DNA of 32,000 nucleotides from Flavobacteriaceae bacterium (GTDB taxonomy: Bacteria > Bacteroidota > Bacteroidia > Flavobacteriales > Flavobacteriaceae). The notes under the pieces were generated by a model. That model saw only the letters and a list, made by a program, of their open reading frames with translations. It was not told the DNA's origin and did no database searches. Every line of letters starts with the position of its first letter. The stretch's first letter is position 1. The stretch lies in contig OZ245049.1 in NCBI GenBank assembly GCA_965224465.1, positions 2,490,001 to 2,522,000 on the forward strand, given 5' to 3'. Below, piece after piece: positions 3,775 through 30,773 of the stretch. The translations under genes were made by a program, and so were the position numbers.

Positions 3775-3895
3775 GTCATACCAAATACATTTCAAAGTGA
3801 GGGTTTAGAAATGGAATTAATTTTTGTTTTAACTAGGCGAAAAACATAAGGATAGCCTTCGCTATCGTTCTGTGTTTTAACAACGTTAAAACAAA
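3775..3895 (+). repeat. Dispersed structured repeat, copy A (orientation defined as +)
   Basis: Aligns by eye to the reverse complement of copies C and D: GTCATACCAAATACATTTCAAAGTGAGGGTTTAGAAATGGAATTA...AACTAGGCGAAAAA...GGATAGCCTTCGCTATCGTTCTGTGTTTTAACAACG. It contains the CATTTC...GAAATG hairpin and the GATAGC-CTTC-GCTATC hairpin. The tail up to about 3937 is diverged. Confidence 0.7.
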
Positions 3896-4000
3896 AGAAG
3901 TACTGAAGCAGCCTAAGGTATTTCACCTGGATACTATAAAATGAAGTACCTAAAACACGCCATTACATAAAACATGTTTTTTTATTCTCTCCAAGTTTGT

Positions 4001-4539: not shown

Positions 4540-4569
4540 TAATAGCATAAAACAAACCATTCAAACACG

Positions 4570-4596
4570 AAAAAGCAGCCAATTGGCTGCTTTTTT
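4570..4596. terminator. Bidirectional terminator between the convergent lipoprotein gene and rseP
   Basis: A5, then GCAGCC-AATT-GGCTGC (a perfect palindrome with its flanking A:T pairs, 4574-4591), then T6. Confidence 0.75.
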
Positions 4597-4616
4597 ATTT
4601 TATTTGTAAAATTATT

Positions 4617-5930: not shown

Positions 5931-6218
5931 AAATAAGTTTCAATATTCTTTTTAAAAAACGTCCAAATGTACGCTTTTAATAATGGATGTAAAAACAGGA
6001 CTACAACCGTCCAAATCATTTAACAAAGTATTGGTAATATTCACATATTTTAGACTAATTTTGTATAAAATTATAGTTAGTACTTTTTAGAAATAAAGAA
6101 ACGATTTTGTGTGTTTTCAATACCAACTCGTTTGATTTCCCTAAGTAAAGGAACAAAAACCTCTAGCAGCAAAGCGCAACAAATAGATGCTAACTATCAC
6201 GCGTTAAAAAAAGATCAA

Positions 6219-6893
6219 ATGCCTAAAAATTCATTAAAAAAATCCATTCCTATATTAGCAGTAATGGCGACACTATCGATCGGAATGATCTGGTTAATTT
6301 ACATGCTACTTACACCACAAAAAAAACTTCCTATTTACAACCCTGCAGACGTAAATCCAAGATTGGTAGACCAAAGCATTAAACATGTACGACGCAACCA
6401 TAAGATTGCAGATTTTAGTCTGATCAATCAAAACGGAGATACGATAACGCAACAGGATTATAAAAACCATATATATGTGGCGGATTTCTTTTTTACACGC
6501 TGTCAAACAATATGTCCTATTATGGGAACTAACATGGCTAAATTACAATCTCATTTTGCAAATGACACTTCCATTCGGTTTTTATCACATTCAGTAACTC
6601 CCGAAATGGATAGCGTTTCCGTATTAAAAAAATATGCTATTAAACAAGGCGTCAACGATGCCGTATGGAATATAACAACAGGAGACAAAAAACACATCTA
6701 CGAATTGGCACGTAAAAGTTATTTTGCAGTCTTAGATGAAGGAGATGGAGGCACACAAGATTTTATCCATACAGAAAACTTTATTTTAATAGATACAAAA
6801 CGGCAAATTCGTGGATTTTACGATGGCACAGATCAAAAGGATATGAATCGATTAATTGCAGACATAGAACTCCTAAAGACAGAAACAAAATAA
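6219..6893 (+). CDS. SCO1/SenC family thioredoxin-fold copper chaperone
   Basis: CxxxC motif CQTICP followed by a conserved His region, plus an N-terminal TM anchor. The ORF is open from GTG 6111, but ATG 6219 gives the usual ~224 aa, so the start is uncertain. Confidence 0.8.
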   Translation: MPKNSLKKSIPILAVMATLSIGMIWLIYMLLTPQKKLPIYNPADVNPRLVDQSIKHVRRNHKIADFSLINQNGDTITQQDYKNHIYVADFFFTRCQTICPIMGTNMAKLQSHFANDTSIRFLSHSVTPEMDSVSVLKKYAIKQGVNDAVWNITTGDKKHIYELARKSYFAVLDEGDGGTQDFIHTENFILIDTKRQIRGFYDGTDQKDMNRLIADIELLKTETK

Positions 6894-6911
6894 ATCTGAC
6901 AACTATCTTAC

Positions 6912-6940
6912 ATTAGAATAATTCTAATTTACTATATTTG
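6912..6940 (+). promoter_or_regulatory. feoAB promoter region: 17-bp palindrome (candidate Fur-type operator) abutting a TATATTTG -7 box
   Basis: ATTAGAAT-A-ATTCTAAT (6912-6928) is a perfect 8+1+8 palindrome. TATATTTG is at 6933-6940, about 30 nt upstream of the feoA ATG. Confidence 0.45.
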
Positions 6941-6969
6941 CCTTTAATTTAATCTCATTCTTAATTAAC

Positions 6970-7194
6970 ATGCTTACAATTGCACAATTAAACATAGGTG
7001 AACGAGGAATCATAGAACGTTTTTTATTCGATAACGTTCCGTTGCAATTACTAGAAATGGGATGCCTGCCAGGACAGGAGGTTACACTTATCCAAAAGGC
7101 ACCATTACACGACCCCTTATATATTACCGTAAATGGCAGTCACATAGCCATCAGAAAAGAAACCGCAGCGCAAATACAAATTACTAAGCTTTAG
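6970..7194 (+). CDS. feoA: Ferrous iron transport protein A
   Basis: 74 aa FeoA-like small protein, 3 nt upstream of feoB. Confidence 0.85.
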   Translation: MLTIAQLNIGERGIIERFLFDNVPLQLLEMGCLPGQEVTLIQKAPLHDPLYITVNGSHIAIRKETAAQIQITKL

Positions 7195-7197
7195 TTT

Positions 7198-9309: not shown

Positions 9310-9422
9310 TGCAGGAAATACTCACCTATATCGCATTGGCACTAGCACTCGGATTTTTAGTAAAAAAATACATTATAAAAACTAAAAAGAAAGGGAATTG
9401 TGATGATGATTGTGGTTGCTAA
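9309..9422 (+). CDS. FeoB-associated Cys-rich membrane microprotein
   Basis: 37 aa: one TM helix (ILTYIALALALGFLV), a Lys-rich linker, and a C-terminal CDDDCGC. Its ATG overlaps the feoB stop (TAATG at 9307-9311). The track ORF 9183-9422 is this frame extended back into feoB. Confidence 0.65.
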   Translation: MQEILTYIALALALGFLVKKYIIKTKKKGNCDDDCGC

Positions 9423-9476
9423 AAAAATAGTTTCCACATTTTAACGTTGAATAAAAAAAGTTTTTTAACAAAAATA

Positions 9477-9641
9477 TTTCACCAAACACATTTCCTATAC
9501 ACGTTTCCTATACACGTTTTAGCAATGTAATTATTATTTATTTTATCTAGACAAAAATGAATAGATAGCCATAACTATCGTCCTGTTTTGAAAGAACGCT
9601 AGAACATAAAACAACCTTTTTATATAGGTTGTTTTTGATAG
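9477..9641 (+). repeat. Dispersed structured repeat, copy B (full length, contains an internal 13-bp tandem duplication)
   Basis: TTTCACCAAACACATTTCC...TTTTAGCAATG...TCTAGACAAAAATGAATAGATAGCCATAACTATCGTCCTG...TTTATATAGGTTGTTTTTGA aligns with copy A and with the reverse complement of copy D, including the tail (D reverse complement: TTTATATCGGTTGTTTTGGA). Confidence 0.6.
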
Positions 9642-10002
9642 AAATTGGTATTTCATGTATTCTTAGAATTCTATATTACATTAATTTGACCTAGGAATAT
9701 CGAATCGTATTGCTCTATTTTTAAGAATAATGTGTAAAAAGGCAAAGAATATCGCAGTTATTCTAAGATTGAATTGCTATTAATCCCCCCTCAATGAAGC
9801 ATTTAAAAAACGACTATCACTATCCCCCTCTTTTTATATAAAAATGTCTTTTTTTTAACAATTTCATAAAGATTATATTCTTTATTACAATTACCCTTAC
9901 TAACACTCACCTTATTACAAGAACACAACTAGCTAACTACCAGCCTATTTACAGGTTATGTTTATTGAATCTAAATAAGGTTGATTATTGAGATATTAGT
10001 TA

Positions 10003-10033
10003 TAGATTTGCCGTTCTTTAGATTTAATCTAAA
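10003..10033 (+). promoter_or_regulatory. TonB-dependent receptor promoter region: TAGATTTG -7 box followed by a 17-bp palindrome (candidate Fur-type operator)
   Basis: TAGATTTG is at 10003-10010. TTTAGATT-T-AATCTAAA is at 10017-10033 (8+1+8), between the -7 box and the ATG at 10050. It is identical to the feoA palindrome at 12 of 17 positions. Confidence 0.45.
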
Positions 10034-10049
10034 TAAACATAGCGAAAGA

Positions 10050-12425
10050 ATGAAAATCAATACTATAATCATACTCCTGTTTCATTTAATTTATCAAATA
10101 GGATTTGCACAAAACAAGCAAGAATTAACAGGGTATATCACTGATAATAATAGCAACGCCATAGAAGGCGTTAGTGTCTATGTAAAAAAGATATCGATAG
10201 GATCAAGCTCAGACAACAAAGGGTATTACAGCATTAAATTACCCCTAGGAAAACACATAATAACACTAAATTATCTTGGATACAAAACAATTAAAAAAAC
10301 CATAGACGTAAACAAAACCAAGTTAAAACAACTAAATTTTAAATTAGAAGAAACTTCTTATCATTTAGATGACATCGTAATTCAAGGAAAAACAAAAGCG
10401 CAACAATTAAGGGAGCAAGCCTATGCCGTAGAAGCAATAGATACCAAAATATTTAAAAACTTGGCTACCAATGCGAATGATATATTAGCTAAAATCCCAG
10501 GAGTAAATATAAGACAATCTGGAGGTTTAGGATCCAATTTTAGTCTTTCGTTAAATGGTTTATCTGGCAAGCAAGTTCGGACATTTATAGATGGTATTCC
10601 CATGGATTATTTTGGTTCTTCTTTAAGCTTAAATAATTTTTCAGCCAATTTAATTGACCATATAGAAGTCTACAAAGGAGTGGTTCCTATACATCTATCT
10701 TCTGACGCATTAGGAGGGGCTATCAACGTAGTTACAAGTAAAAGATTAGAATCATTTTTAGATGTATCCTATAGCATAGGTTCTTTTGAAACCCATATTA
10801 CATCTCTAAACGCACAATACCGAAACCCTAAAAACGGTTTTATATTAAAACTAAAATCATTTTACAATCAAGGAGAAAACAATTATAAAGTGCCCGTAAA
10901 ATTATTAAATATTAGCACAGGAAAAGAAGACAAATTTTACACACAAGTAGCGCACTTTCATGATGCTTATAATTCAAAAATGATTTGGTTAGAAACAGGC
11001 GTAACTGTCAAGAAATTTGCAGATCAACTTCTTGTTGGTTTTATGTATTCAGACAATTCAAAAGAAATACAACAACCTGCTAATGCCATAGGAGAGGCAA
11101 AAATACCTTACGGAGAAGTCATAACATTAGAAAAAAAATGGATCTCGAACATTCGATATAACAAAAAGGGACTACTTAATGATAAACTGTCAATCAATGC
11201 ATTTTTGGTAGGCGTATTTTCAGACAACACCTACAGAGACATCTCGAACTATCGCTACGACTGGCACGGAAACAAAACATTGCGAACCGACACAAATACA
11301 GGAGAAATAGAAAACAGAAAAACCAACCTTATACTGTCTACAGAGAATTTATTAGCCAATACCAATATTGAGTTTCAATTGACAGAAAACAGCAACATCG
11401 CTTTAAGCTACAGTTTTAACTCATTAAATATAGAAGGAACAGATGAATACAAAGAAGAAAACAACACTCAATTTAGCCATCCTAGTACCATAAAAAAACA
11501 AGTCGTAGCCTTTGCTTACACCAATGCTTTACTGGAAAACAAATTAAAAAGCACTCTTTTTACAAAACTTTACAATTATAAGATAAACTCCCTAGAAACA
11601 AATTATAGCGGTACTGAAATAAAGTTTTTAAACGAGAAAAAACAAAATTTAGGTGTCGGAATGTCCACAACTTATAAATGGGAAAAATTACAATTAAAAG
11701 CGTCTTTTGAAAAATCTGTACGTTTTCCAGAAGTTATTGAATTATTTGGAGACGGACTCACCTATACAGCTAATCCAGCACTACTCCCAGAGAAAAGCAA
11801 CAACTATAATGTAGGGTTTATTTATAAAATCGAATTCTTACACAGAGACTTAACATGCTCTGTAAACGGGTTTATGCGAGACGCACAAGACTTTATAATA
11901 CCGCAGGTTAAAGGAATAGAAGTCTTCCATATCAACAGCAGTAAAGTTTTATCAAAAGGAATAGACGTAGCTACTAATTATAGATTTACAAAGGATCTGT
12001 TTATCAATTTAAACCTTACGTATGTTGATTTAAGAGATAATAAAAAATGGAGAAATGGAATTACAGGAAGTCCAAACACACAGTATAAAATAAGACTCCC
12101 TAATGAGCCTTACCTATTTGGAAACATTTCTATTTCTTATAAAAAAGAAAAGTTATTTAAAAAAGATGATGATTTTTCGATCACAGCGAATCAAAATTAT
12201 GTTCATAGTTTCTATTATCGATGGGAAAACTTAGCCAATAAAAACAAGGGGCTAGTCCCTGAACAATGGACAACAAACTTAGACTTGGTTTATAGTATGA
12301 AAAAAGGAAAATACAACACCTCCTTTGGCATAACTAATCTATGGAATACCAACGTATATGACAACTACCAACAACTGAAACCAGGAAGAACTTATAACCT
12401 CAAAATAAGATATTTTATAAATTAA
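10050..12425 (+). CDS. TonB-dependent outer-membrane receptor (XusA-like, siderophore-type)
   Basis: Signal peptide MKINTIIILLFHLIYQIGFAQ, a CarboxypepD_reg-like N-domain (GYITD...GVSVYV...GYYSIKLPLGKHIITLNYLGYKT), a plug, and a long beta-barrel. Starts at ATG 10050 rather than the TTG at 9981 used by the track. Confidence 0.85.
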   Translation: MKINTIIILLFHLIYQIGFAQNKQELTGYITDNNSNAIEGVSVYVKKISIGSSSDNKGYYSIKLPLGKHIITLNYLGYKTIKKTIDVNKTKLKQLNFKLEETSYHLDDIVIQGKTKAQQLREQAYAVEAIDTKIFKNLATNANDILAKIPGVNIRQSGGLGSNFSLSLNGLSGKQVRTFIDGIPMDYFGSSLSLNNFSANLIDHIEVYKGVVPIHLSSDALGGAINVVTSKRLESFLDVSYSIGSFETHITSLNAQYRNPKNGFILKLKSFYNQGENNYKVPVKLLNISTGKEDKFYTQVAHFHDAYNSKMIWLETGVTVKKFADQLLVGFMYSDNSKEIQQPANAIGEAKIPYGEVITLEKKWISNIRYNKKGLLNDKLSINAFLVGVFSDNTYRDISNYRYDWHGNKTLRTDTNTGEIENRKTNLILSTENLLANTNIEFQLTENSNIALSYSFNSLNIEGTDEYKEENNTQFSHPSTIKKQVVAFAYTNALLENKLKSTLFTKLYNYKINSLETNYSGTEIKFLNEKKQNLGVGMSTTYKWEKLQLKASFEKSVRFPEVIELFGDGLTYTANPALLPEKSNNYNVGFIYKIEFLHRDLTCSVNGFMRDAQDFIIPQVKGIEVFHINSSKVLSKGIDVATNYRFTKDLFINLNLTYVDLRDNKKWRNGITGSPNTQYKIRLPNEPYLFGNISISYKKEKLFKKDDDFSITANQNYVHSFYYRWENLANKNKGLVPEQWTTNLDLVYSMKKGKYNTSFGITNLWNTNVYDNYQQLKPGRTYNLKIRYFIN

Positions 12426-12437
12426 ATACACTAAACA

Positions 12438-13694
12438 ATGAATACATTTAACGCAACAATAATAAAGCATCTCTTACTAACTACCTCAGTGTTACTGATG
12501 TTAAGCTGTGAGAAAAACGACTCGGACCCGACTCCAAAAGAACCAACAGGAACTATTCAGTATTATATAGGAATTGAGGCAGCTACGGATCCAGCAACAG
12601 AAGTGTTAAGCACTGCAATTAGTCTAACCGAAGGTGTAATAACTCCTGTAAAAAACGGGTTCGAACAACCTACTTGGATGGATTACATACAATTAAAAGA
12701 CAAAATAATTGCAAGCGGGTATACTTCGGCACCAGAATTCACAAGCTATTACTTGGTTGATGGTATTTTAACCAAAGGGGAAAGTTTTTTTACAGATATG
12801 GGAGTTTTTGCCTCAGAAATAGTTGACGACAACACCTTATTACTAATGGCATCTCCTAGAAAAGGGCTTGGTTCTAAAAAAATATATGTAATTAACACAA
12901 AAGAAATGTCTATTTCATCATCTAAAAGCATTGATTTCGGAAATGATATAGCCAATAATTTAACCTCCTTTCCTGTTGACATGAAAGTACGAGGAGATAA
13001 ATTATTTGTCGCCTATTTTATGAAAGAAGCAGAAGCTTTTAAAACACCCAATGCAAACCAAGCAAAAGTTGCAATATTCAGCTACCCATCCATGGAATTC
13101 GAAAAAATAATTACAGATGACAGAGCGCCAAACATTGGAAGATATTACACTAAAAATGCGTTAGAAATAGACGAAAAAGGAGACATCTATACATTCTCTC
13201 CCTCTTCACTAGCCTGTGGATACAATCCTGTACCAGAAAAAAATTCAGGGATTTTAAGGATAAAAAAAGGGGCAACTAAATTTGACCCAAACTATTACAT
13301 CGATTTTGAAACACTCTCAGGTGGTTATAAAATAAACGACTTATATTATGTTGCAGACGGAAAAGCTGTTGTAAGAATTTTAAAAGAAGACGAAAGTATT
13401 CCAGCATATTCTTGGGCTGCATACAGACCAACATCTCCTCAGCCAATAATGGACTTTGGTATTATAGATTTAGTAAAAAAATCGTTCACCTTAATTTCTA
13501 ACATTCCAAAAAGTGGCGGAGGATGGGCTTCTGCAGCACGTGTAGAAGGTAAAAAACTATATATTGGAGTAAGTAATAAGAACTATTCTGGCATTTACAT
13601 TATAGATACTGAAACTGCAACAGCAACAGAAGGAGCAACAGTTGAAGGTAATTACGCAAAAGCTATTTTAGCACTCACAAACAAAAAAAAGTAA
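12438..13694 (+). CDS. DUF4374-type surface lipoprotein (XusB-like)
   Basis: 418 aa with lipoprotein signal LLMLSC. Size, composition and position between a TonB-dependent receptor and a PepSY-TM gene match the DUF4374/XusB arrangement known from Bacteroides. The assignment is from memory of the family, not from a search. Confidence 0.6.
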   Translation: MNTFNATIIKHLLLTTSVLLMLSCEKNDSDPTPKEPTGTIQYYIGIEAATDPATEVLSTAISLTEGVITPVKNGFEQPTWMDYIQLKDKIIASGYTSAPEFTSYYLVDGILTKGESFFTDMGVFASEIVDDNTLLLMASPRKGLGSKKIYVINTKEMSISSSKSIDFGNDIANNLTSFPVDMKVRGDKLFVAYFMKEAEAFKTPNANQAKVAIFSYPSMEFEKIITDDRAPNIGRYYTKNALEIDEKGDIYTFSPSSLACGYNPVPEKNSGILRIKKGATKFDPNYYIDFETLSGGYKINDLYYVADGKAVVRILKEDESIPAYSWAAYRPTSPQPIMDFGIIDLVKKSFTLISNIPKSGGGWASAARVEGKKLYIGVSNKNYSGIYIIDTETATATEGATVEGNYAKAILALTNKKK

Positions 13695-13759
13695 CACTCT
13701 TTATATAACAAATCGCTCTAGGTCTCAAAAGATCTTAGGGCGATTATATAAACCAACTA

Positions 13760-14092
13760 ATGATCAGTATCAATCTAATTCTTGTATTCCTTGGAGCTTC
13801 CTTATTTTATTTGACCTCTAAAAAAGAAAACTTGTCACCAAAGACAGATCTAATACAATGGCTAAATAAGCGTAAAAAGCGCACTAAATTACTTGGGTTT
13901 ATTTGCTGTTTAGGATCAATTATTGGCTGTGTAAATCAGCATGGATTAACAACTGGTTTCATAATTTGGATACTGTTATTAAGTAGTTGTTTAAGCTTTA
14001 TTGTCATCCTTTTTCCGTTAAAGCTACTCAAAACAAAACAGCTCTTTTTCTGTTGTATAACCCTCTTTTTCATAGAATATATTTTAACTTAA
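13760..14092 (+). CDS. Small integral membrane protein (3 predicted TM, DUF3325-like)
   Basis: 110 aa and hydrophobic, with a basic loop KRKKRTK. Its stop overlaps the next start (TAATG at 14090-14094). Confidence 0.55.
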   Translation: MISINLILVFLGASLFYLTSKKENLSPKTDLIQWLNKRKKRTKLLGFICCLGSIIGCVNQHGLTTGFIIWILLLSSCLSFIVILFPLKLLKTKQLFFCCITLFFIEYILT

Positions 14093-14394
14093 TGCCTGCA
14101 AACCCAAAATACTTAACTTCTTCGCCGTGGCAACAATTTGCTAAGATTTCTTCTGGCCTTGTTGGAGGATATACAATAAGTGCATTGTTTCACATGTGCA
14201 TATGGTTAATGACGCCTTATAAAAACGAAATACTAGTTACTTCCATTTTTTCAATGTTCTTAATATGGGGGACATTGCTAATTCTCCCCTATCTCTTTAA
14301 AAATGCGTGGAGCGCATGGCTGTATTACATCCTAACAATAATATCCTTATCAATTCTTTATTATTTTCTACAAATTAACACAGCCATTACCTAA
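14092..14394 (+). CDS. Small integral membrane protein (DUF3649-like, GGY motif)
   Basis: 100 aa starting at ATG 14092 (MPANPKYL...). The motif SSGLVGGYTISALF resembles small proteins found next to PepSY-TM genes. Both ends are TAATG overlaps. The track ORF start at 13987 overlaps the previous gene and is not used. Confidence 0.55.
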   Translation: MPANPKYLTSSPWQQFAKISSGLVGGYTISALFHMCIWLMTPYKNEILVTSIFSMFLIWGTLLILPYLFKNAWSAWLYYILTIISLSILYYFLQINTAIT

Positions 14395-16460
14395 TGACTA
14401 AGAGAAATTACAATGTGTTTTTTAATGCACACACCGTTAGTGGAATTATCATAAGTGTTGCGCTTTACATCATTTTTTTCACAGGTGCATTTGCCCTATT
14501 TAAAGATGAAATTACCAGATGGCAAGAAGGCACGCATGTTAAATCAACTCATAAAAAAGATATAAACTACGATCAAATAGTATCAAGTATTGATAAAGTA
14601 CATCCATTATTAGGCAGAGACCTACAACTGTATCTAAACAAAGAACCAGGCAAAATATATGTCTATTTATTAGGCAGTAAAGACTCTTTGGCATTAGATG
14701 TAAACAAAGGCTCTCAATATTTCTCTGTAAACATTCAAAGTTTAGAACGTAAAACCTACGCAGAGAATTACAGCTTAGGAGAGTTTTTGTACCGATTGCA
14801 TTTTTTCCATCAAATCCCTTCAATCGGCATGTATTTGGCAGGTTTTATTGCATTATTTTTTCTGTTTGCAATCGTTACAGGAGTGATTGTTCATTGGAAA
14901 AAAATGATTTCTAATTTTTATGAATTTAATCCGAAAACAGCATTAAAGAACGTATGGTCTAATGCACATACAGCCCTTGGAATCATAGGACTTCCCTTTC
15001 AGTTTATATATGCAATAACAGGAGCATACTTTGCTTTAACCCTCCTTGTATTACTTCCTGCAAACATTCTATACAATGGTGATCAACAAAAATTAATGGA
15101 GGAATTACGTCCTGAACGTAAAACCTTTGAATGGATTTCTGCTAGCTCCGAGAAACTTCCCAGTTATAACAAATTTATACAGAAATCTGACAGCCTAGTT
15201 CGTGATTTTCATCCTGAAATGGTGTATATAAAAAATTATGGAGGTGTAAACATGCAATATATTCTCACAGGAAATGTATCCGACAAACAGAACTTTACAG
15301 GAAGTACTAGGATTGTATACGATCATTTAACAAAAGAATTTAACATAGAAAAACATCCCGATACTTTTTCCTATGTAGAAGATATACAAACAATTGTTTC
15401 TAAGCTACATTTTGCAGAATATGGAGGGAAATACCTTAAAATCATCTATTTTATACTGGCTTTTATAACCTGTTTTGTCATTATTTCGGGCATTTTAATA
15501 TACGTAGAATCAAGAAACAAAAAAGCAATGAAAATAGACCAACGCCTTTACACTGCTAAAATTGGACACCTCTTTATTTCTATCTGTTTATCAATGTTTC
15601 CCGTAACCGCATTGGCTTTTATATTTGTCAAATGCACACATGAATATTTTAATGATGGACAAATGGCAATCTATACGTTCTATTTTATCACATGGTTTTT
15701 AATGAGCCTTTATTATAGGTTTAAAAGGGACAATTATAAAACCAACAAATCTACTTTATTACTAGGTTCAATTTTTGGTTATTTAATTCCAATTGTCAAT
15801 GGAATAATTTCAAATAATTGGATGTGGATAACGTACAAAAACAAACAATTCGACATATTTATTGTAGATCTCCTATGGATAATTATAGCCTCTATCTCCA
15901 TTATTACTTACGCTAAGATAAACCCAAAAATAAAAGAACAAAGTAGTTTTAATAGACATCCAATAAATTACAAAACTATAGATCAACAAAGAAGAGAAGA
16001 ACAAAAAACAGCAACGAAACTACAACAAACAGATAGCAATAATTTAAAAAACGAAATACCAATGAAACTAAAAATCACACTACTTTGGCTGTTTTTAGCC
16101 ATAGGATGGATTGTACACCATATTTATGGATTATTTAATGTGTATTATATTGAAACCTTAGTCATGGAGGGTTCCACAGGAGAGGCACCTCTAGAACATC
16201 ATCTATATAGAATTGTATTTGAAGGACTATCCCTCCTTTTTGCTTTATTTACAATAGAATTCTCTGTTAAATTTTTTAAAGAAATTTCGTTCTACTTTGC
16301 AATAATTGCAGGACTGTATAATTTATATCACCTCGTAAGTTCTCTTGTGTATGACCTCACAAATATATCCGAACTATTTATGTTGACCTTAATGGTAATT
16401 GCAAGTGTCTTTTTAGTAAAAAACCTTGCGCATTGGAAGAACGAAATCTCACTAATATAA
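14394..16460 (+). CDS. PepSY-associated TM-helix protein (PiuB/XusC-like) with a C-terminal ~130-aa 4-TM extension
   Basis: 688 aa. The N-terminus (FFNAHTVSGIIISVALYIIFFTGAFALFKDEI) and the repeated TM/periplasmic-loop layout are typical of PepSY-TM proteins. After a polar linker (QQRREEQKTATKLQQTDSNN), an in-frame MKLKITLLWLF... module begins at 16062. Confidence 0.75.
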   Translation: MTKRNYNVFFNAHTVSGIIISVALYIIFFTGAFALFKDEITRWQEGTHVKSTHKKDINYDQIVSSIDKVHPLLGRDLQLYLNKEPGKIYVYLLGSKDSLALDVNKGSQYFSVNIQSLERKTYAENYSLGEFLYRLHFFHQIPSIGMYLAGFIALFFLFAIVTGVIVHWKKMISNFYEFNPKTALKNVWSNAHTALGIIGLPFQFIYAITGAYFALTLLVLLPANILYNGDQQKLMEELRPERKTFEWISASSEKLPSYNKFIQKSDSLVRDFHPEMVYIKNYGGVNMQYILTGNVSDKQNFTGSTRIVYDHLTKEFNIEKHPDTFSYVEDIQTIVSKLHFAEYGGKYLKIIYFILAFITCFVIISGILIYVESRNKKAMKIDQRLYTAKIGHLFISICLSMFPVTALAFIFVKCTHEYFNDGQMAIYTFYFITWFLMSLYYRFKRDNYKTNKSTLLLGSIFGYLIPIVNGIISNNWMWITYKNKQFDIFIVDLLWIIIASISIITYAKINPKIKEQSSFNRHPINYKTIDQQRREEQKTATKLQQTDSNNLKNEIPMKLKITLLWLFLAIGWIVHHIYGLFNVYYIETLVMEGSTGEAPLEHHLYRIVFEGLSLLFALFTIEFSVKFFKEISFYFAIIAGLYNLYHLVSSLVYDLTNISELFMLTLMVIASVFLVKNLAHWKNEISLI

Positions 16461-16567
16461 GTCAGACTCCAATAATATAAATTAACATTTTCTAATAATT
16501 ATTACAAATATCGCAACCAAACCGTTTCTGTTTTTAGACGCTGTTTGGGGTGTGAACAGTTGTCTAT

Positions 16568-16595
16568 GCTTCTTTTTTTGTTAAAAAAAAGAAGC
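16568..16595. terminator. A/T-rich 12-bp hairpin between the convergent PepSY and XRE genes
   Basis: GCTTCTTTTTTT pairs with AAAAAAAGAAGC around a 3-4 nt loop, 108 nt after the PepSY stop. Terminator function is plausible but there is no separate T-tail. Confidence 0.4.
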
Positions 16596-16882
16596 TGCAC
16601 TGTTAATAGTGTTACTAACTAATGTTGATGATTACTAATAAGTTTTGACGAAATTTATGATAACATCACAATAAATAAACTATTTGAAAGTAACTATTAA
16701 AAAACAGTACAAGCCCTGTTAGTTACGACGAAAACATAGAAAGGCATACTGGTTATCTTCAGATATATCAATACCATTCCATTTTTAAGAATGCAAGAAG
16801 AAGTTTTTAATATCAACATCAGCCAAGGAGATACCCGTTATCTATAAACCAAAATAGGTCCTTCTTTTTTTTATAAGATATG

Positions 16883-17236
16883 TCAATCCAAATTTTGAAA
16901 ATCTTTTGCTTGTCTTTCTAATACCGCAATAAGTCTATCTTTTTCTTTGAGCTGTTTTTTAAATTGTAGAACCAATTCTCTTGATAAATAAGCTTCAGGT
17001 AATACGTTGCTATTTGATGTCCCCCCTAAAAGAGAGTCCTTTGTTTGATTTGGGCAGAACTTACAGAGATTAAAACGTAAAAACTTACAGATTAGCACTA
17101 ATTTTTCGAAAGAAATTTTAGTTTTTCCATTTTCAATATTTGAATACGTTTTTTGAGTAATATTTAAGAAATCTGCCATTTCTTGTTGTGTGATTTTTTT
17201 ACTCACTCTTTTTGTTTTTAATGCAAGTCCTAACAT
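16883..17236 (-). CDS. XRE-family helix-turn-helix transcriptional regulator
   Basis: 117 aa with the HTH ITQQEMADFLNITQKTYSNIENGKTKISFEKL and a coiled C-terminal tail. Confidence 0.8.
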   Translation of the reverse strand: MLGLALKTKRVSKKITQQEMADFLNITQKTYSNIENGKTKISFEKLVLICKFLRFNLCKFCPNQTKDSLLGGTSNSNVLPEAYLSRELVLQFKKQLKEKDRLIAVLERQAKDFQNLD

Positions 17237-17253
17237 AATAATTCTTTTAATAA

Positions 17254-17406
17254 CTAAAATCCAAAATGACCGATATAAATAGTTTTTTTTACGTTCTAGT
17301 GTTGTTAAAAAACAGCACGATAGCTATGGCTATACTTAGATTTTTTTACCTAACTAAAATATAATTCCATTTCTAAACCGTCACTTAGAAATTCAATTGG
17401 TATAAC
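17254..17406 (-). repeat. Dispersed structured repeat, copy C
   Basis: Roughly 80% identical by eye to copy D over ~150 bp. It has an 8-bp hairpin ATTTCTAA-N8-TTAGAAAT and an ATAGC-TATG-GCTAT hairpin. It ends 17 nt upstream of the XRE start codon. Confidence 0.8.
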
Positions 17407-17431
17407 AAACTAAAAAATGCATATTATAAAC

Positions 17432-17666
17432 CTCAACAAACAATTTCTTATCAAGATAACCACTTGGTTTTAAAACTAAAAAAACAAAGCACAAAATATA
17501 CTACAGTACGAAGATATCGCAAAATCTCAAGAGATAAAAAGGAATTTTAATAAGATTTACTTATTCAGAATATATACAAACATATCTAATTATTTTGAGA
17601 TGCTATAGCCTGAAAAACAAGTTAAGTTGGTGTAAAAAAAGTAAATTGTTAATGCTGAAATTTGAG
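17432..17666 (+). mobile_element. Degenerate deletion remnant of an IS related to the intact IS at 18447-20018
   Basis: 17449-17640 aligns with the 5' UTR and first ~55 codons of the intact transposase gene (YEDIAKSQEIKRNFNKIYL vs EHEDITKTQEIKGKFNKIWL) but contains stops. GCTGAAATTTGAG (17654-17666) resembles the IS terminal repeat GCGAAACTTGAG. Confidence 0.6.
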
Positions 17667-17800
17667 CTTTAATCAACTATAAGGGAGCGATGGGGATTCT
17701 TTGTATTACTGGTATAATAAGACTATTTACGCAAACGTATTCTCAGCCCCAGAAAGCATAACTTATTCCATAGTATCAATACTTATAAAACAACTATTTT

Positions 17801-17914
17801 GGGCGTTCCCCAAGGGTCGGGCTATACGCTCATACGCTTCGGTATTTTCAGTTTGGAGTACTACTTCCTCCAACCTAAAAATACCTGCAGGGTAACCGCT
17901 CCTATCCCTAACGC
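17801..17914. repeat. Long imperfect hairpin element with GGGCTAT.CGCT / CCGCTCCTATCCC flanks
   Basis: GGTATTTTCAGTTTGGAG (17841-17858) pairs with CTCCAACCTAAAAATACC (17868-17885) at 16 of 18 positions around a 9-nt loop. It is flanked by GGGCGTTCCCCAAGGGTCGGGCTATACGCTCATACGC and GCAGGGTAACCGCTCCTATCCCTAACGC. The two overlapping track ORFs here (17701-17895 + and 17763-17963 -) look spurious. Confidence 0.5.
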
Positions 17915-18249
17915 AAATGAGTATTGAGATGTTAGAATGGAGAGACAAGAAAAAATGTAACATACATAAATGTCCCTAATGTAAATAACCAACAATATTC
18001 AGGAAACGTCCTAACAAACAGCAATCAATACCACAAACCGATGCATAGGAAAGAACATAAAAGTATATGACCTAAAAAAGTGACATCTATCAAGGTTCGT
18101 TCTCGATAGCCTTTCTATTATTAAATGCGCTCACCGTTTTTATAGATTTTAAAGATAACAAAACTCTCACAGCTGCAAGAGAACTCACTCTTTCCTTTAT
18201 AACAGTTCCGTTTTAGGTAACTATTTAGATAAAATTGATCTTTTAAAAC

Positions 18250-18364
18250 GGCACAAGTTGAACGGATTTAGTTTTTTATCTATTAACTAAGTGGCACAAG
18301 TTGACGATAATCACTGGCACTAACCGACCGTAATTGCTGGCACAAATAGAACTGTGGTAGCCAC
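18250..18364 (+). repeat. TGGCAC iteron-like array
   Basis: GGCACAAGTTGA occurs at 18250-18261 and again at 18293-18304. Three consecutive 23-nt units each start with (G/C)TGGCAC, at 18291, 18314 and 18337. The array ends in the palindrome GTGG-TAG-CCAC (18354-18364). Confidence 0.5.
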
Positions 18365-18446
18365 TTTAAGTTTATAAAAATCTAACTTTACACCCAAGGA
18401 CTTAAAACCCATTGCTTCTGCTGCATCACTTAATTTTATTAAATTA

Positions 18447-20018
18447 CTCAAGTTTCGCACTTAGATAGATTTACGCAACCTCTTGATAGTTAAGCTTGTG
18501 GATATTCACTAGGAATCCAAAATCTTCAATATTCGCTATTATTTTACGTGTAACCATTTCAACATCAATAGATTCAATCATCTTTTCCAAAATGTCAATC
18601 ACCAAGCTGATAACTGCTAATATCCTGATGTTTAGCTTATTCTCTATATAATCTTGTTTTAAATCTTTAAACAAGCCTCCTATAGTTTCGTAGGCTTCCA
18701 TTCTATATCGAATACTGGTGAGTAAATATTGAACCATTATAATGCTTATTTGTGCGATTTGAATATCGAAATTAGTAGACTGACATTTTCCAAGACCAAA
18801 CAACTGCTTAGCTTCTTTAAAAAACACTTCTATGGACCATCTGATACTGTATATTTCAATAGCCTTTACAAATTTCAGTGTTGTATCCGTTGATATTAAC
18901 GTGTGCCATTTGCCATTCTTTCCACCTTTTGAAATAAATACAGCAACCTTAAGACCATCAATTTCAGTTATGTAATGATGGTAGTAATAATTGAATTTAC
19001 GGCATCGTTTTGGTTTTATTTTCTGTTTTTTGAGTTGTGACAACGTTTTTATCTTTGATCGAACTTCAATCTTACTGTTGTATTTATACATCCCAATAAT
19101 ATGAGTTGAACTACTAATGTTCCGTAGCTTTCTAAGTAATTTAACACTTGTAAACCAGGTATCTATTAAGATGTAATCTATGGGGATTTTACGTTTTACA
19201 AGCCTTGAGAACATTTGAACTAGCAGGTCTGTTTTCTTTTTATTGAGTTCCTGATACCTCTTTGCTGCAATTGTTTTACTACATCTTGGAGTTTTCTTTT
19301 GAAGCCTACGTTGCTTCGCCGTTAGACCGTATTTTAATTTTGATGTTTTACTTTCACGATGCAAACTAAAGTCAACAGGGATAAATACACTTCCATTCCA
19401 ATAACCAGCTACAAGTAGCTTAAAGCCTAGGTAATACGTTTTTGACACATGGTTGTATATTTTTGAAACACCTTCAATTGTCTTTCCTGTTTTAGAAAGA
19501 TCAGTATCGTCAAAGATCAAGCACTTTGTAGCGTCTTGAGATGGAGTAAAGAACTCTTCTTTTAATAGATATTGCTTCACAAACTGAGCTAGAAAAACCC
19601 TCCAATTTATCTTTTGATTTGCTAGGATTCGATAGTATGAATCTTTACCCGACTGACCTAATCCCTTGTCTTTACTACTTGTAAGTCCATGAATAGAATC
19701 AAATCCGATAATAGGTAAAATTAAAAGTGTAGAGATTAAATTACCGAATGAAATCCCCGATTTCTTACACCAACTAAACTTGTTTTTAATTTTATTGAAT
19801 CCTAAAATATTTAGATGTGCTTGTAGGTATTCTGAACTAAGCCAAATCTTATTAAATTTTCCTTTTATCTCCTGTGTTTTTGTGATATCTTCGTGTTCTA
19901 GCATGTTTTGTACTTTCTTGTTCGTACTTAAAAGTACAATAAAACCAGGGGATTACCTTGGTTTTCATGCTATTTATTTTTACTTAAACACCTGTAAATG
20001 ATGGGTGCGAAACTTGAG
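18447..20018 (-). mobile_element. Intact IS4-family insertion sequence (~1.57 kb)
   Basis: Perfect 14-bp terminal inverted repeats: CTCAAGTTTCGCAC (18447-18460) and GTGCGAAACTTGAG (20005-20018). Flanked by the direct repeat TTAAATTA (18439-18446 and 20019-20026), which could be read as 10 bp TTAAATTACT with 12-bp inverted repeats. It carries a single transposase ORF. Confidence 0.85.
18471..19904 (-). CDS. IS4-family DDE transposase
   Basis: 477 aa. YSIRWSIEVFFKEAK fits the IS4 signature Y-(2)-R-(3)-E-(6)-K exactly. Candidate catalytic Asp regions are LIFDDTD and ILIDTWF. Confidence 0.85.
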   Translation of the reverse strand: MLEHEDITKTQEIKGKFNKIWLSSEYLQAHLNILGFNKIKNKFSWCKKSGISFGNLISTLLILPIIGFDSIHGLTSSKDKGLGQSGKDSYYRILANQKINWRVFLAQFVKQYLLKEEFFTPSQDATKCLIFDDTDLSKTGKTIEGVSKIYNHVSKTYYLGFKLLVAGYWNGSVFIPVDFSLHRESKTSKLKYGLTAKQRRLQKKTPRCSKTIAAKRYQELNKKKTDLLVQMFSRLVKRKIPIDYILIDTWFTSVKLLRKLRNISSSTHIIGMYKYNSKIEVRSKIKTLSQLKKQKIKPKRCRKFNYYYHHYITEIDGLKVAVFISKGGKNGKWHTLISTDTTLKFVKAIEIYSIRWSIEVFFKEAKQLFGLGKCQSTNFDIQIAQISIIMVQYLLTSIRYRMEAYETIGGLFKDLKQDYIENKLNIRILAVISLVIDILEKMIESIDVEMVTRKIIANIEDFGFLVNIHKLNYQEVA

Positions 20019-20103
20019 TTAAATTACTACCAACGCTAGTGGATGCACACAAGTCTCTGATGTCTTGTAAAGTAATTGGTTTGCCATAATGTTTGGATAT
20101 TCT

Positions 20104-20259
20104 ACTAATTACAATCCAAAACAACCGATATAAATAGTTTATTTTACGTTCTTACATCATTAAGAAACAGAACGATAGCTAGGCGATCCATCCATTTTTC
20201 GCCTAGCTAAAATATAATTTCATTTCTAAAACGTCATTTAGAAATATAGTTGGTATTAC
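20104..20259 (-). repeat. Dispersed structured repeat, copy D (best preserved)
   Basis: ACTAATTACAATCCAAAACAACCGATATAAATAG...AACAGAACGATAGCTAGGCG...CGCCTAGCTAAAATATAATTTCATTTCTAAAACGTCATTTAGAAATATAGTTGGTATTAC. It has a perfect 9-bp hairpin ATTTCTAAA-N6-TTTAGAAAT and a perfect 9-bp stem AGCTAGGCG...CGCCTAGCT. It lies 109 nt downstream of the TlpA-like gene stop, in the same orientation. Confidence 0.8.
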
Positions 20260-20368
20260 TGATTATTTTAATTTCTAAGTCTTTTTAATACACCCGAGTT
20301 TTACTATATCTTTTGCTGAAAAATAGTATTCGTTATTTATAGCCTTTATTTTTTATTAATGGTTACGT

Positions 20369-21520
20369 TTATAAACGAACCAAACTATCAATTCTTTTTT
20401 CCAAAAGACCTATATCAACGCTACCTGAAATCGATTTGTAAATTCTGCCCTTCTTGTCAATTAAAACAAAATCTGGTATTTCTTGAATGTCATATTTTAA
20501 AGCTACATCGTCGTTGACTCCTTCTAAATTTGATAAACTCACCCAATTTATTTTATCTTTTTCCACCATTTTTCTCCATCTTTTTTCACTTCTATCTAAG
20601 GAGTAATTTATTACTAGAAAGTCCTTTTTATCAAATTTATTTATGAATTTTGGAATCACATTTCTGCTAAATTCACGACAGGAAGCACACCAAGAAGCTC
20701 CAAAATCAAGTAGAATAACCTTTCCTTCAAAATCTGACAAACGAACGATTTTCCCATCTAAGTCCTTTGCTTCAAAATCTGTAAATAAGTCTCCATTTTT
20801 TAGTTTTTTATAGGTTAGATATTTTTTTAGTTTTTGTCCGTTAACCGATCTTTTAAATTGAGGATTCAAACGTTCATAGAATAATTTGAAACTATCAATT
20901 GGTATTCCATTTTTTTTGTGACTGAGAACTGTTATTATGGAATGATCCTGGTTCGGATTGTTAAATACGAAACTCCAATGTTGTTTTTTCTTTAAGTTTG
21001 CAAATTTTTCATAGACTTTATTTATGTCTTCTTTTACCTTGCTATTTTTCACAGCTTCGTTCTTATAGAATTTATTGCATTCGAACATCATTTTTATTTT
21101 GGCATCAAACGCAACCTTATTTACGATATCGTTTATCTGAGAACCTTCTATTTCACTGTTCTCAAAGTCATTAAAGCTTCCCGTGATTGCAATATTGGCG
21201 TTTTCTAACCAAAAACTCATACCATGTTCTAGGAATTGATTCGTTTTTGGGTTTCTAAATCCGATTGCAATTAATAAAGGCTTATCAATTTTTCCTTTAA
21301 GAATAAATGTCCCGTTTTTTGTATAAGTTGAATCAATAAAAAGAAACTTTTCATTTTTGTGTTGGTTTCGATCAACAATGTAAACTTTAAGGCTATCGGG
21401 AAGGGAACTGATAGTCGCATTAATAGTATACCCGTTAACAAGATTTTCAGTGTTTATTTGTCTGTTTTTTTTACAGGATGTAATTGAAATAAAAAAAAGA
21501 AGTATAAAAATATTTTTCAT
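20369..21520 (-). CDS. TlpA/AhpC-like thiol-disulfide oxidoreductase lipoprotein
   Basis: 383 aa with lipoprotein signal FFISITSC and a C-terminal thioredoxin fold with active site WCASC. Confidence 0.8.
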   Translation of the reverse strand: MKNIFILLFFISITSCKKNRQINTENLVNGYTINATISSLPDSLKVYIVDRNQHKNEKFLFIDSTYTKNGTFILKGKIDKPLLIAIGFRNPKTNQFLEHGMSFWLENANIAITGSFNDFENSEIEGSQINDIVNKVAFDAKIKMMFECNKFYKNEAVKNSKVKEDINKVYEKFANLKKKQHWSFVFNNPNQDHSIITVLSHKKNGIPIDSFKLFYERLNPQFKRSVNGQKLKKYLTYKKLKNGDLFTDFEAKDLDGKIVRLSDFEGKVILLDFGASWCASCREFSRNVIPKFINKFDKKDFLVINYSLDRSEKRWRKMVEKDKINWVSLSNLEGVNDDVALKYDIQEIPDFVLIDKKGRIYKSISGSVDIGLLEKRIDSLVRL

Positions 21521-21568
21521 ATTATTTGTGTTATTTTTTTAGTTGTGAGGCGTCAAATTGAGCCCTTA

Positions 21569-22172
21569 TTAATCAAAATTATGCACTAGCTTTACAGTAG
21601 GAATACCTATAAAAAAGACAAATCTGCAGCTGTTTGAGCAGCAATCATCTTTGGTTTCACAAACACATCCATTTTTAAAAAGTTCCTCGTGTCGTGCACG
21701 ATTATACCAATTAAAACCAACACCACCTTGACATACACCTGCCCATCATTTCAAGAAAACATCTTTTTTTTTAGTATATTTTAATGATCGTAAAACAAAA
21801 CTTGAGCATCTGTTATTCCTTTCTAGGACATAAAAAAGATTCATCCCATCAATTCCAACTTGCACAAGACAAGAAAATGGTAATTCAGTCAATAACCTAG
21901 GGGCAAGCCCACGAGGCATGAAAAAGAAAAAACCTTAATCATTTCGATGCAAGCATCGGGGAATTAAACCCACTAGTGAGATTAAATTTATCATTTGCTA
22001 TTTTTACTGCTGTATTCTGTATTTTATACAGATTCAGCGTATCCGAAATCGCCAGCAAACTTGAATGGTCTTGGTGAGGTAAAACTTGATCCTTTAAGTA
22101 TTTTGAAGTATGCTTAATTTTTAATGCTTCAATAATTTTTGTGGTAACATTCAGGAAATTGGCTGTTTCCAT
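21569..22172 (-). pseudogene. Frameshifted and truncated remnant of a peptidase-C39-like (VKOR/thioredoxin-associated) gene
   Basis: The 77-aa ORF (21939-22172) looks like only the N-terminal part of a C39-like domain (ALKIKHTSKYLKDQVLPHQDHSSLLAISDTLNLYKIQNTAVKI). The expected continuation (ELPFSCLVQVGIDGMNLFYVLERNN...DVFLK) is in another frame at 21746-21886, and a third piece (WAGVCQ...) is in a further frame down to 21569. The family assignment is from memory. Confidence 0.5.
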
Positions 22173-22481
22173 ATATGTATCAAAATTAAATCACACACAC
22201 TTGCTAATCATCAATCAACAAAGTAACGTATTCAAAGGGGGTTTTGTTTTTTTAATATCACGTATTAACACTAACAATAATAAGCACTTATTTCCAAACA
22301 TCTTGTAAAAATATTACTAAAATTCAGTAACTTATTACGGATTTCAATTGCCTTTGTTTAACTATCCTTAGTAACATTCTTTGTAACCGATCCGTTTCTG
22401 TTTTTCAACTAGGTTATTAATACCATCAAAACAAGATTACTTATTTCAATAACTAAAATCTCATATCCCAATCAATAACCG

Positions 22482-22489
22482 TACTTTTG
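22482..22489 (+). promoter_or_regulatory. Candidate -7 box (TACTTTTG) for the SseB-like gene
   Basis: TAnnTTTG match 32 nt upstream of ATG 22521. Confidence 0.35.
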
Positions 22490-22520
22490 CAGAAATTGAA
22501 TCCAATACACACGAATCGCC

Positions 22521-23159: not shown

Positions 23160-23161
23160 TA

Positions 23162-23265
23162 TTTACACCAAATACATTTCCAAGTGACAGTTTTGAAATG
23201 GAATTAGTTCCCACAAGCTACCTGTTAAAAACAAGTTACCATAAAAGGCTATGCTATTAGAACTT
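23162..23265 (+). repeat. Dispersed structured repeat, copy E (diverged 3' half)
   Basis: TTTACACCAAATACATTTCCAAGTGACAGTTTTGAAATGGAATTAG matches the first ~45 nt of copy A closely, and the later AAGGCTATGCTATTAGAAC matches weakly. It starts 2 nt after the SseB-like stop codon. Confidence 0.6.
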
Positions 23266-27382: not shown

Positions 27383-27390
27383 TATTTTTG
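27383..27390 (+). promoter_or_regulatory. Candidate -7 box (TATTTTTG) upstream of the 27416 gene
   Basis: TAnnTTTG match 26 nt upstream of the ATG. Confidence 0.35.
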
Positions 27391-29016: not shown

Positions 29017-29059
29017 CTTGTATCCAAACACAGAAACACATTTCCCGCTCCTAAACATC

Positions 29060-29136
29060 ACCAATTACAATCCAAAAATTATGGATATAAATAGTCTATT
29101 TCCCAAACCATCATTTGGAAATTTAATCGGCATAAC
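29060..29136 (-). repeat. Dispersed structured repeat, copy F (short internal-deletion derivative)
   Basis: ACCAATTACAATCCAAAAATTATGGATATAAATAGTCTATTT is joined directly to CCCAAACCATCATTTGGAAATTTAATCGGCATAAC. Both ends of copies C and D are present, but the central ~80 bp is missing. It lies 35 nt downstream of the GH5 stop, in the same orientation. Confidence 0.6.
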
Positions 29137-29171
29137 GCATTGTTTTTTACTTACTTAATACTACAATACTT

Positions 29172-30773
29172 CTAATTATTTACATACTTCAATAACAACT
29201 TACGAGAACCCTTACGCCCTATATATTTCACATATAACCATCCCGCATCTGTACCTTCAATATTTATTAACATCTCGTTTTTAAAAGACACTAATGTTTC
29301 TGGACTTAAATTAGAAACCCGAGGCACATAAACAATTGTAGCTGACTTATTTACTTTAGATTCTTCCCACTCCATCGAAAAACACAAATTATCAAAATCA
29401 TTTTCATAAGAAATAAGCGTGCCATTTACGGCATAAGGATAAGGCCTTAATAGTATTTTATTGAAAAAATCAAGGGTATCTGTATCTTCATTATAAGACC
29501 AATACGCATTTCCGAATTTATATTTTTCGATAAGATGGATGGCATTTTCAGCCACAGGAATTGCAGTGATAGAATTCCCATAAAAAGCGCCCCATTCCCC
29601 TAACCAAACAGGCATTTTAAGTTCCTTCCCTTTTTTATAAATCTGATTGTAAATATAAGCAACTCGTTCCTTAGAAGCAGATGCAACCGCTTTGGTATCC
29701 GTTACCAGATCATATCCATGAGGAGCATAAGCAACCAACGGATCTGGATCCCCATTCTTTAAGACAACACGAGCAATACTACTTTCTACCCCCGTATTCC
29801 CATAATAACTATGCTCTAAAAACAAGATATGATTCGTATCTACTTCACGAATTGCAGCACTCACTTTTTGATACATTTTTTGTAAATGATTGGTTTCAAA
29901 TTCACGGTTCAACTCAAACAACTGGCTAAACACCTGATGGTAATTTTCTTGTGTAGAAATTAAATCCAGCGCTTTCATCCTCCGAGATTCATCCGCCCAC
30001 ATATGCATCAATTCTTCTTCTGAAAGCAACACACCTTTTTCTTTATAATACAATTCACCAAAAGCTTTTAATAAAATCATGGTGGATTGTACGCCCGATG
30101 TCCCAGGAAAGGGTTCATTCATTAAATCATATCCAATAACAGTGGTATTAGATGCATATCGTTTTGCAACATGCTTCCACACATTCGAAAAATGATCTTG
30201 AATACCAATACCATCTGGAGCTGGTTTATTTTTCCAAAAATTATCAAAGGATGTTTGAACCGCGGCACTCATCATATAAGCATCACTCCAAATAACACCC
30301 GTTGTGTGTGGTTTTCCTTCATCCAAAGTAGCCCATTCAGGAGCTCCATCGCTATATTTAACACTAAATAAATCCTGATGCATGTCCAATACAACAAAAA
30401 TATTATGCTTTTTTGCCCAAGCAATACGCGTATCTATTTCTTTTAAATACTCCTCGTTATACACCCCCGGTTCTGGTTCTAATCCATCCCAAATAATAAC
30501 CAATCGAATGCAATTTACTCCCAAGGAAGACAACTTAGAGAACATTGCTTCGCCACTTTGATACATATACCCCTCTTCTTTGTTTTTACTGACAATATTA
30601 ATTCCGTTAAGAGTAATTTGACGTCCTTGATTGTCTATAAATACGTCTCCCTTAATGGTTACTGAAACAGGCAATTCGGATAATGACCTCTCTTGAACAC
30701 TAGAACATGTCCAATTTAAAAACAGCATTAAAACAACAGCTGATACGAATACTACATTCTGAATATTTTTCAC
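29172..30773 (-). CDS. Glycoside hydrolase family 5 protein (endoglycosylceramidase/cellulase-like) with a C-terminal beta-sandwich domain
   Basis: 533 aa with a signal peptide. The acid/base motif is GYDLMNEP and the nucleophile motif is VWLGEWG. TIM-barrel GH5 hallmarks are present (e.g. NCIRL..IWD). Confidence 0.8.
   Translation of the reverse strand: MKNIQNVVFVSAVVLMLFLNWTCSSVQERSLSELPVSVTIKGDVFIDNQGRQITLNGINIVSKNKEEGYMYQSGEAMFSKLSSLGVNCIRLVIIWDGLEPEPGVYNEEYLKEIDTRIAWAKKHNIFVVLDMHQDLFSVKYSDGAPEWATLDEGKPHTTGVIWSDAYMMSAAVQTSFDNFWKNKPAPDGIGIQDHFSNVWKHVAKRYASNTTVIGYDLMNEPFPGTSGVQSTMILLKAFGELYYKEKGVLLSEEELMHMWADESRRMKALDLISTQENYHQVFSQLFELNREFETNHLQKMYQKVSAAIREVDTNHILFLEHSYYGNTGVESSIARVVLKNGDPDPLVAYAPHGYDLVTDTKAVASASKERVAYIYNQIYKKGKELKMPVWLGEWGAFYGNSITAIPVAENAIHLIEKYKFGNAYWSYNEDTDTLDFFNKILLRPYPYAVNGTLISYENDFDNLCFSMEWEESKVNKSATIVYVPRVSNLSPETLVSFKNEMLINIEGTDAGWLYVKYIGRKGSRKLLLKYVNN

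Follow-up and report, generated by a model that had tools for sequence, protein, structure and literature searches.

MITEs, which are non-autonomous DNA transposons, occur in 56.5% of prokaryotic genomes, with ~90% of the bacterial copies being intergenic (PMC11602168), and among the Bacteroidota one such element, MITECca01, is known from the symbiont Cardinium (PMC9769881). On the eukaryotic side, the Tourist-like MITEs of the PIF/Harbinger type make a 3-bp TWA duplication (PMC2213677). The repeat described here, found in a 32,000-nt stretch of flavobacterial DNA (the window, meaning the whole stretch that was analyzed), resembles MITECca01, the Correia elements of Neisseria, the ERIC elements of enterobacteria, and the RUP elements of Streptococcus pneumoniae in its length of 100 to 200 bp, its non-coding nature, its terminal inverted repeats (TIRs), and its short duplications. 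It also resembles prokaryotic MITEs in general in having a long hairpin, dispersed and mostly intergenic copies, and both truncated and internally deleted derivatives. It is not known to share sequence similarity with Correia, ERIC, RUP, or MITECca01. Moreover, its duplication is a 3-bp A/T triplet (TTA, TAA, or TTT) rather than the TA of Correia and RUP, and TTA or TAA makes up five of the six perfect cases, as in Tourist, PIF/Harbinger, and the IS5 group; the TTT of one copy (copy B) departs from the TWA of Tourist and the IS5 group. The element ends read TACC...GGTA. Duplications of 3 bp are likewise produced by the IS3, IS30, and IS982 families, so that the mobilizing transposase need not be of the IS5 group.

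Two MITEs that act on mRNA, ERIC in Yersinia and Correia in Neisseria, are co-transcribed with their neighbors and alter the stability or processing of the transcript in a way that differs with their orientation. In a similar way, three copies of the present element (E, D, and B), which have no terminator after the upstream stop codon, would be co-transcribed and form a long RNA duplex, but the element differs from ERIC and Correia in showing no significant orientation bias and in having many copies beyond terminators. Unlike known MITEs, this family has been seen only in a Lutibacter-like lineage and in three subseafloor MAGs. It is a new family of an already known kind, the bacterial MITEs.

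Architecture and copies of the element

To delimit the repeat, a profile made from its clear copies was run over the window with nhmmer, and exactly six members were recovered (Table 1), which bears out the six copies that a sequence-only reading had placed there. The gene names given in that reading agree with Pfam (atpG, FeoB-associated microprotein, XRE, DDE transposase, TlpA-like thioredoxin protein, SseB-like protein, ZIP, GH5, and PanE), and its distances to the upstream stop codons (78, 54, 109, 2, and 35 nt for A, B, D, E, and F, respectively) were reproduced from the sequence. Two of the copies are incomplete. Only ~46 nt (23164-23209) of the stretch 23160-23265 is recognizable as copy E, the remainder aligning poorly, and the DNA that follows, from 23210 to ~23325, is unrelated or heavily decayed in a gapped alignment; copy F, counted as a clear copy, is present but is an internally deleted derivative.

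Table 1. Copies of the element in the window, with the only transposase gene
Feature	Position	Profile match	Strand	Evidence	State and surroundings
Copy A	3779..3940	3775-3937	+	nhmmer E = 5e-38	Near full length, 3' end decayed or rearranged; 78 nt after the atpG stop, past the atpG terminator (3716-3747)
Copy B	9480..9650	9492-9651	+	nhmmer E = 1.5e-35	Full length, 13-nt tandem duplication at 9497-9522; 54 nt after the FeoB-associated microprotein stop; duplicated TTT at 9477-9479 and 9651-9653
Copy C	17248..17402	17406-17249	-	nhmmer E = 7e-41	Full length, 3' inverted repeat decayed; ends 11-17 nt before the XRE start; adjoins transposase-derived DNA
Copy D	20103..20255	20259-20102	-	nhmmer E = 9e-40	Full length; starts 109-113 nt after the TlpA-like gene stop
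Copy E	23166..23209	23164-23209	+	nhmmer E = 6e-8, model positions 4-49	5' terminal fragment only, ~46 nt; TTA before it at 23163-23165; start 2-6 nt past the stop of the SseB-like gene
Copy F	29059..29133	29136-29101 (5' part)	-	nhmmer E = 0.006; 3' part, 42-nt match to consensus positions 122-163 (alignment)	75 nt, internal deletion, both TIRs kept; between convergent GH5 and panE, 35-38 nt after the GH5 stop
DDE_5/DDE_Tnp_1 transposase	18471-19904		-	Pfam	477 aa; only transposase in the window

Six further copies (L001 to L006) were found outside the window, and the consensus, TACCAATTACATTTCCAAGTGACGGTTTAGAAATGGAATTATTTTTTGTTTTAGCTAGGCGAAAAATCTAAGGATAGCCTTAGCTATCGTTCTGTTTTTTAACAACGCTAGAACGTAAAATAAACTATTTATATCGGTCATTTTGGATTGTAATTGGTA, was derived from an alignment of the four full window copies with these six. 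Similarity among the copies starts and stops at fixed points of the alignment, at 5' TACCAATTACATTTCC and at 3' ...TTTTGGATTGTAATTGGTA, and in the consensus the TIRs, TACCAATTACA...TGTAATTGGTA, pair without a mismatch for 11 bp. Beyond the TIRs, the whole element is an imperfect palindrome, with 56 Watson-Crick, 7 G:T, and 2 A:C pairs at ~78 positions; owing to this complementarity across its entire length, the consensus folds as a single long hairpin (-56.3 kcal/mol and z = -8.9 as RNA; z = -6.9 as DNA), and the reverse strand of the full copies also matches the element profile in nhmmer. Two TIR variants are altered at both ends jointly, as at pair 10-150, where C:G has become A:T in copies C, L001, and L003. 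The full copies measure 153 to 178 bp and have no conserved ORF, and hence no coding capacity. MITEs were taken to be non-coding elements of ~50 to 800 bp with TIRs of at least 10 to 15 bp, and the element lies within both ranges. The twelve copies, six in the window and six in three MAGs, are dispersed at unrelated loci, each with different neighbors, and some show the forms of decay typical of MITEs, namely, a lone 5' end (E), a lost middle (F), an internal tandem duplication of 13 nt (B), and insertions of ~23 nt at a single internal point (L002 and L006). At this point, after ...AACGTAAAA (approximately consensus position 125), unrelated inserts of ~23 nt or longer are present in two or three of the copies, located at ~6620-6645 in L006, ~4830-4855 in L002, and ~3895-3940 in the window.

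Among the eight copies with two readable ends, the sequences directly outside the ends form a perfect 3-bp duplication in six, the triplet being TTA in L001, L003, and L004, TAA in L005 and L006, and TTT in copy B. The flanks of copy D, TAA and GAA, match at two of three positions, those of copy C (TTA and AAA) do not match, and those of copy F are also mismatched; one end is unreadable in A, E, and L002. A 2-bp TA duplication of the IS630/mariner type was considered and rejected, because it fits neither copy B nor the register of the two inverted repeats, which leaves a length of 3 bp. The outer T and A of TTA/TAA could also be read as part of the TIRs; on that reading, independent evidence of duplication would come only from the middle base and copy B. 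In L001 (MITE at 5378-5542), the 3' duplication TTA (5540-5542) also serves as the stop codon, TAA, of a 632-aa gene in the opposite orientation (5540-7438): the insertion landed in the stop codon, the duplication regenerated it, and the reading frame stayed closed. Targeting of A/T triplets of the kind seen at L001 would account for copies lying against stop codons in either orientation, as copy E does. Taken together, the TIRs, the hairpin, the 3-bp duplications, and the decay derivatives identify the repeat as a MITE, and we consider it highly probable that it is a non-autonomous DNA transposon of ~159 bp that targets A/T triplets and whose surviving copies sit in harmless DNA behind genes.

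Position, orientation, and terminators

The sequence-only reading had emphasized that five of the six window copies lie behind a co-oriented gene, a bias which it held not to be expected from random insertion. This did not withstand a null model in which the intergenic lengths of the window were used with the elements removed, and both placement and orientation were random: under this model, the chance that a copy ends up 3' of a gene with its own orientation is p = 0.54, giving P = 0.15 for five or more of six. With the six MAG copies added, 9 of 12 copies are 3' of a co-oriented gene (P = 0.12). Moreover, copies E and F are located between convergent genes, where either orientation is co-oriented with one neighbor, and their orientation is therefore uninformative; according to the flanking genes assigned by Pfam, L001 and L006 are likewise between convergent genes. 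Two MAG copies are co-oriented (L002 behind rplT; L004 behind a gene for a histidine kinase), while L003, between ahpC and ahpF, and L005 are each antisense to both neighbors, so that two of the four informative MAG copies are antisense. Orientation in co-directional intergenic regions is thus 6:2 (two-sided p = 0.29), the window copies in such regions being co-oriented in 4/4 cases (p = 0.06). We infer that the co-orientation seen in the window is no stronger than chance and reflects a small sample; a weak orientation effect may nevertheless exist among the 12 copies, considering these 4/4 window copies (p = 0.06) and the better folding of the forward strand in 9 of 10 copies. No copy (0/12) lies between divergent genes, with P = 0.14 under the intergenic proportions of the window and 0.03 under a generic 25%, which is the direction expected if insertions into promoters are lost but is not significant. 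Of the three explanations put forward in the sequence-only reading, selection against other placements is the one that fits the data, when combined with the choice of A/T-rich 3-bp targets.

A scan for intrinsic terminators revealed that 5 of the 12 copies (A, L001, L002, L003, and L006) are separated from the stop codon upstream of them by a terminator, which they follow at distances of 6 to 143 nt, and thus lie outside the main transcripts. The machinery of transposition might accordingly target terminators or their hairpins, placing copies just behind genes, and these five copies are what speaks for it: the element begins ~30 nt after the atpG terminator in A and 6 nt after the rplT terminator in L002, while the terminator is ~55 nt away in L001 (a bidirectional one, at 5291-5323), ~60 nt away in L003 (1471-1792 of that locus, MAG NORP167), where the element lies beyond the ahpC terminator and 11 nt from the ahpF start, and ~140 nt away in L006, where the element stands between two convergent terminators. 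In the same L003 locus, a terminator-like hairpin is present at 1709-1726 with the MITE downstream. Against such targeting, no terminator-like site was detected beside B, C, D, E, F, L004, or L005, none of the 12 copies lies inside or interrupts a terminator hairpin, the distances are scattered, and the duplicated triplets are plain A/T triplets that any AT-rich intergenic DNA offers. A preference for terminator hairpins, which had been proposed for the window copies, has at most weak support: five copies do lie beyond terminators, but none within one, and the others have none nearby. Targeting of terminators is an unlikely explanation for the placement of the family.

A second possibility is that the element works as a 3'-UTR module, being co-transcribed with the upstream gene so that its hairpin stabilizes the 3' end of the mRNA, terminates transcription, or yields an sRNA, with orientation maintained by selection. 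The 4/4 co-orientation of the window copies in co-directional regions would agree with this, as would the start of copy E 3 to 6 nt past a stop codon with no terminator between, the better forward fold of the consensus (z = -8.9 versus -4.7), and a central hairpin bordered by runs of A and of T, which gives a weak terminator score on both strands but has a stem of only six pairs with the T-run 6 nt away from it. The remaining evidence points the other way. The five copies named above are past the terminator of the upstream gene itself, L003 (ahpC/ahpF) and L005 are antisense to both of their neighbors, and L001 occupies the 3' region of an oppositely oriented gene. Furthermore, the forward-fold advantage rests on 7 G:T versus 2 A:C wobble positions in the consensus, and of the changes that individual copies show at paired positions of the consensus, 27 lead to G:U, which leaves the forward strand paired, 22 lead to A:C, which leaves the reverse strand paired, and 45 break the pair; with 27 versus 22, pairing is not maintained in a strand-specific manner, and the strand asymmetry was rejected as evidence for an RNA after these wobble counts. 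RNAalifold detected essentially no covariation, with one pair changed on both sides, the copies being too similar, and essentially no compensatory change is strand specific. The few two-sided changes are shared TIR variants and are equally expected if one transposase must match both ends.

Searches against known RNA families agree with this picture. No Rfam 15 family matched at its gathering threshold anywhere in the window, permissive Rfam searches of three copies gave best scores of 14 to 22 bits against thresholds of 37 to 119 with hits differing from copy to copy, and scans of the window for tRNA and tmRNA found none. The Flavo-1 RNA motif (RF01705) shows some likeness, being from Flavobacteria and giving weak sub-threshold matches of 16.8 and 14.5 bits at a shared part of two copies, but membership was rejected: the scores are far below the 42-bit gathering score, with E = 0.55 to 1.6 in searches of 200 to 300 nt, and copy D has no match. 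The element is also not conserved at matching sites in relatives (see below). Consequently, the 3'-UTR function suggested in the sequence-only reading found no support in the copies beyond terminators, the antisense MAG copies, the pairing, or Rfam, and we regard it as quite improbable. A repeat dependent on single-strand transposition (REP/REPIN-like, of the IS200/IS605 or RAYT type) instead of a cut-and-paste MITE would also be palindromic and intergenic, with a forward strand that folds somewhat better and no partner DDE transposase found, but it can hardly be maintained, since such elements have neither target-site duplications nor TIRs and the present one has both, its ~159 bp compare with REP units of 20 to 40 bp, and its orientation flips inside the 32-kb window, which leaves no replication-strand rule.

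With respect to promoters, no exact Bacteroidetes -7 box (TAnnTTTG) is present in any window copy, and an element-borne Bacteroidetes promoter (TTTG...TAnnTTTG) was rejected on this ground. The suggestion that any XRE promoter lies within copy C or reads through it seems reasonable; copy C itself has no exact -7 box, and the closest such box upstream of it spans 17577-17584. Elsewhere in the window, exact -7 boxes occur 30 to 55 nt upstream of many start codons (4001-4008, 6933-6940, 22482-22489, 27383-27390, and others) and probably mark promoters; in L017, a relative's locus, the box at 4001 is conserved along with the DNA around it. Within the MITE reading, there is a slim chance that some copies have been adopted by the host: where transcripts read through E, D, or B, the ~75-bp RNA duplex could protect the 3' end or serve as an RNase III site, favoring co-oriented insertions, and the XRE gene could owe its promoter or leader to copy C.

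Mobilization, distribution, and genomic surroundings

As a MITE, the element would depend on a transposase of the DDE type whose gene lies elsewhere in the genome; this enzyme would bind both ends of the element and act in trans, inserting it by a 3-bp staggered cut. Insertions into coding sequences or promoters would then be lost, and the survivors would be those behind genes, often beyond the terminator, where TAA/TTA targets would be common in stop codons and in the A/T tracts around terminators; such abundance of targets would bring copies into contact with stop codons in either orientation. No autonomous IS with the ends of the element was found, as the terminal repeats have no further occurrence in the window and 17 other loci. 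A link between the element and the neighboring DDE transposase element was examined and rejected, the ends of the two being unrelated.

To describe the distribution of the family, 185,579 species genomes (one genome per species) were scanned with an exact pattern. The true copies outside the window number six, all of them in three Flavobacteriaceae MAGs from the North Pond subseafloor, NORP129, NORP150, and NORP167. Two other pattern matches were dismissed as chance, one in an Acidobacteriaceae MAG (L007) and one in a metagenome (L008), where the contig is eukaryote-like and carries telomere-type repeats; the metagenome scan gave no other match. Viral contigs, scanned twice, and plasmids, searched by distant BLAST, returned nothing. 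The atpG gene of the window is ~80% identical to that of Lutibacter and 89 to 92% identical to those of metagenomic relatives, and the host is a Lutibacter-like flavobacterium.

Comparison of orthologous intergenic regions, which the sequence-only reading had named as a check, revealed that the element is absent at the sites of A, B, E, and F in relatives, all at 71 to 92% protein identity and too diverged for the exact empty site to be aligned. The sites of E, B, and F lack it in the syntenic loci L009, L010, and L011, and that of A lacks it in L012, L016, and L017, which keep the same terminator and downstream promoter region. For instance, the SseB-ZIP region measures 299 nt in the window but 121 nt in L010 and L011, where it holds an ordinary terminator hairpin. 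Two further sequences were noticed in these relatives. In L010, positions 1970-2075 on the minus strand, within the FeoB-SseB intergenic region of NORP167, weakly resemble the 5' half of the element, with a local score of 57 versus 34 +/- 5 for shuffled sequences (maximum 48), and could be a decayed antisense copy. Downstream of atpG, L017 (~3900-4075) and L012 (~1980-2150) share a different and more G+C-rich sequence (GGCTTCGGCCCCGCTCAGCCAC...), which may be another repeat family in the same safe spot.

Several features of the surroundings of the copies are also worth recording. At 9650-22520, ~13 kb separates the feoB-associated microprotein gene from the SseB-like gene, which are adjacent in L009 and L010; this extra DNA carries genes for a TonB-dependent receptor, DUF4374, PepSY_TM, XRE, a DDE transposase, and a TlpA-like protein. 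It resembles an island for iron uptake that was inserted here, and MITE copy B stands at the left edge. Within it, an inverted duplication of 160 nt with ~80% identity (17480-17639 and 19761-19922) covers the 5' end of the transposase gene and seems to be what is left of another copy of the DDE_5/DDE_Tnp_1 insertion sequence, in inverted orientation, and MITE copies C and D flank the whole transposase block in direct orientation. Beside panE, the window has a convergent gene of the GH5 cellulase family (29017-30773) where relatives have leuS (L010, 8474-11406), and copy F is located at this synteny break. Small ORFs beside TlpA-like thioredoxin genes (21746-22172, minus strand) recur in L012 at 4025-11765, where the small ORFs and TlpA-like genes occur with a peptidase-C39 ABC transporter, a grouping that suggests a peptide-export or redox cluster.

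These results explain a conspicuous repeat of the window as a mobile element, and a regulatory hypothesis is no longer needed; copies between convergent genes, in particular, constitute no evidence for an orientation rule. Since MITEs were already known to be common among prokaryotes and to sit mostly between genes, the finding holds little biological surprise. For the Lutibacter-like Flavobacteriaceae, the consensus and the profile can be used to mask the family or to take a census of it. Moreover, as L001 illustrates, the targeting of A/T triplets allows this MITE to hit a TAA stop codon and to restore the stop through its own duplication.
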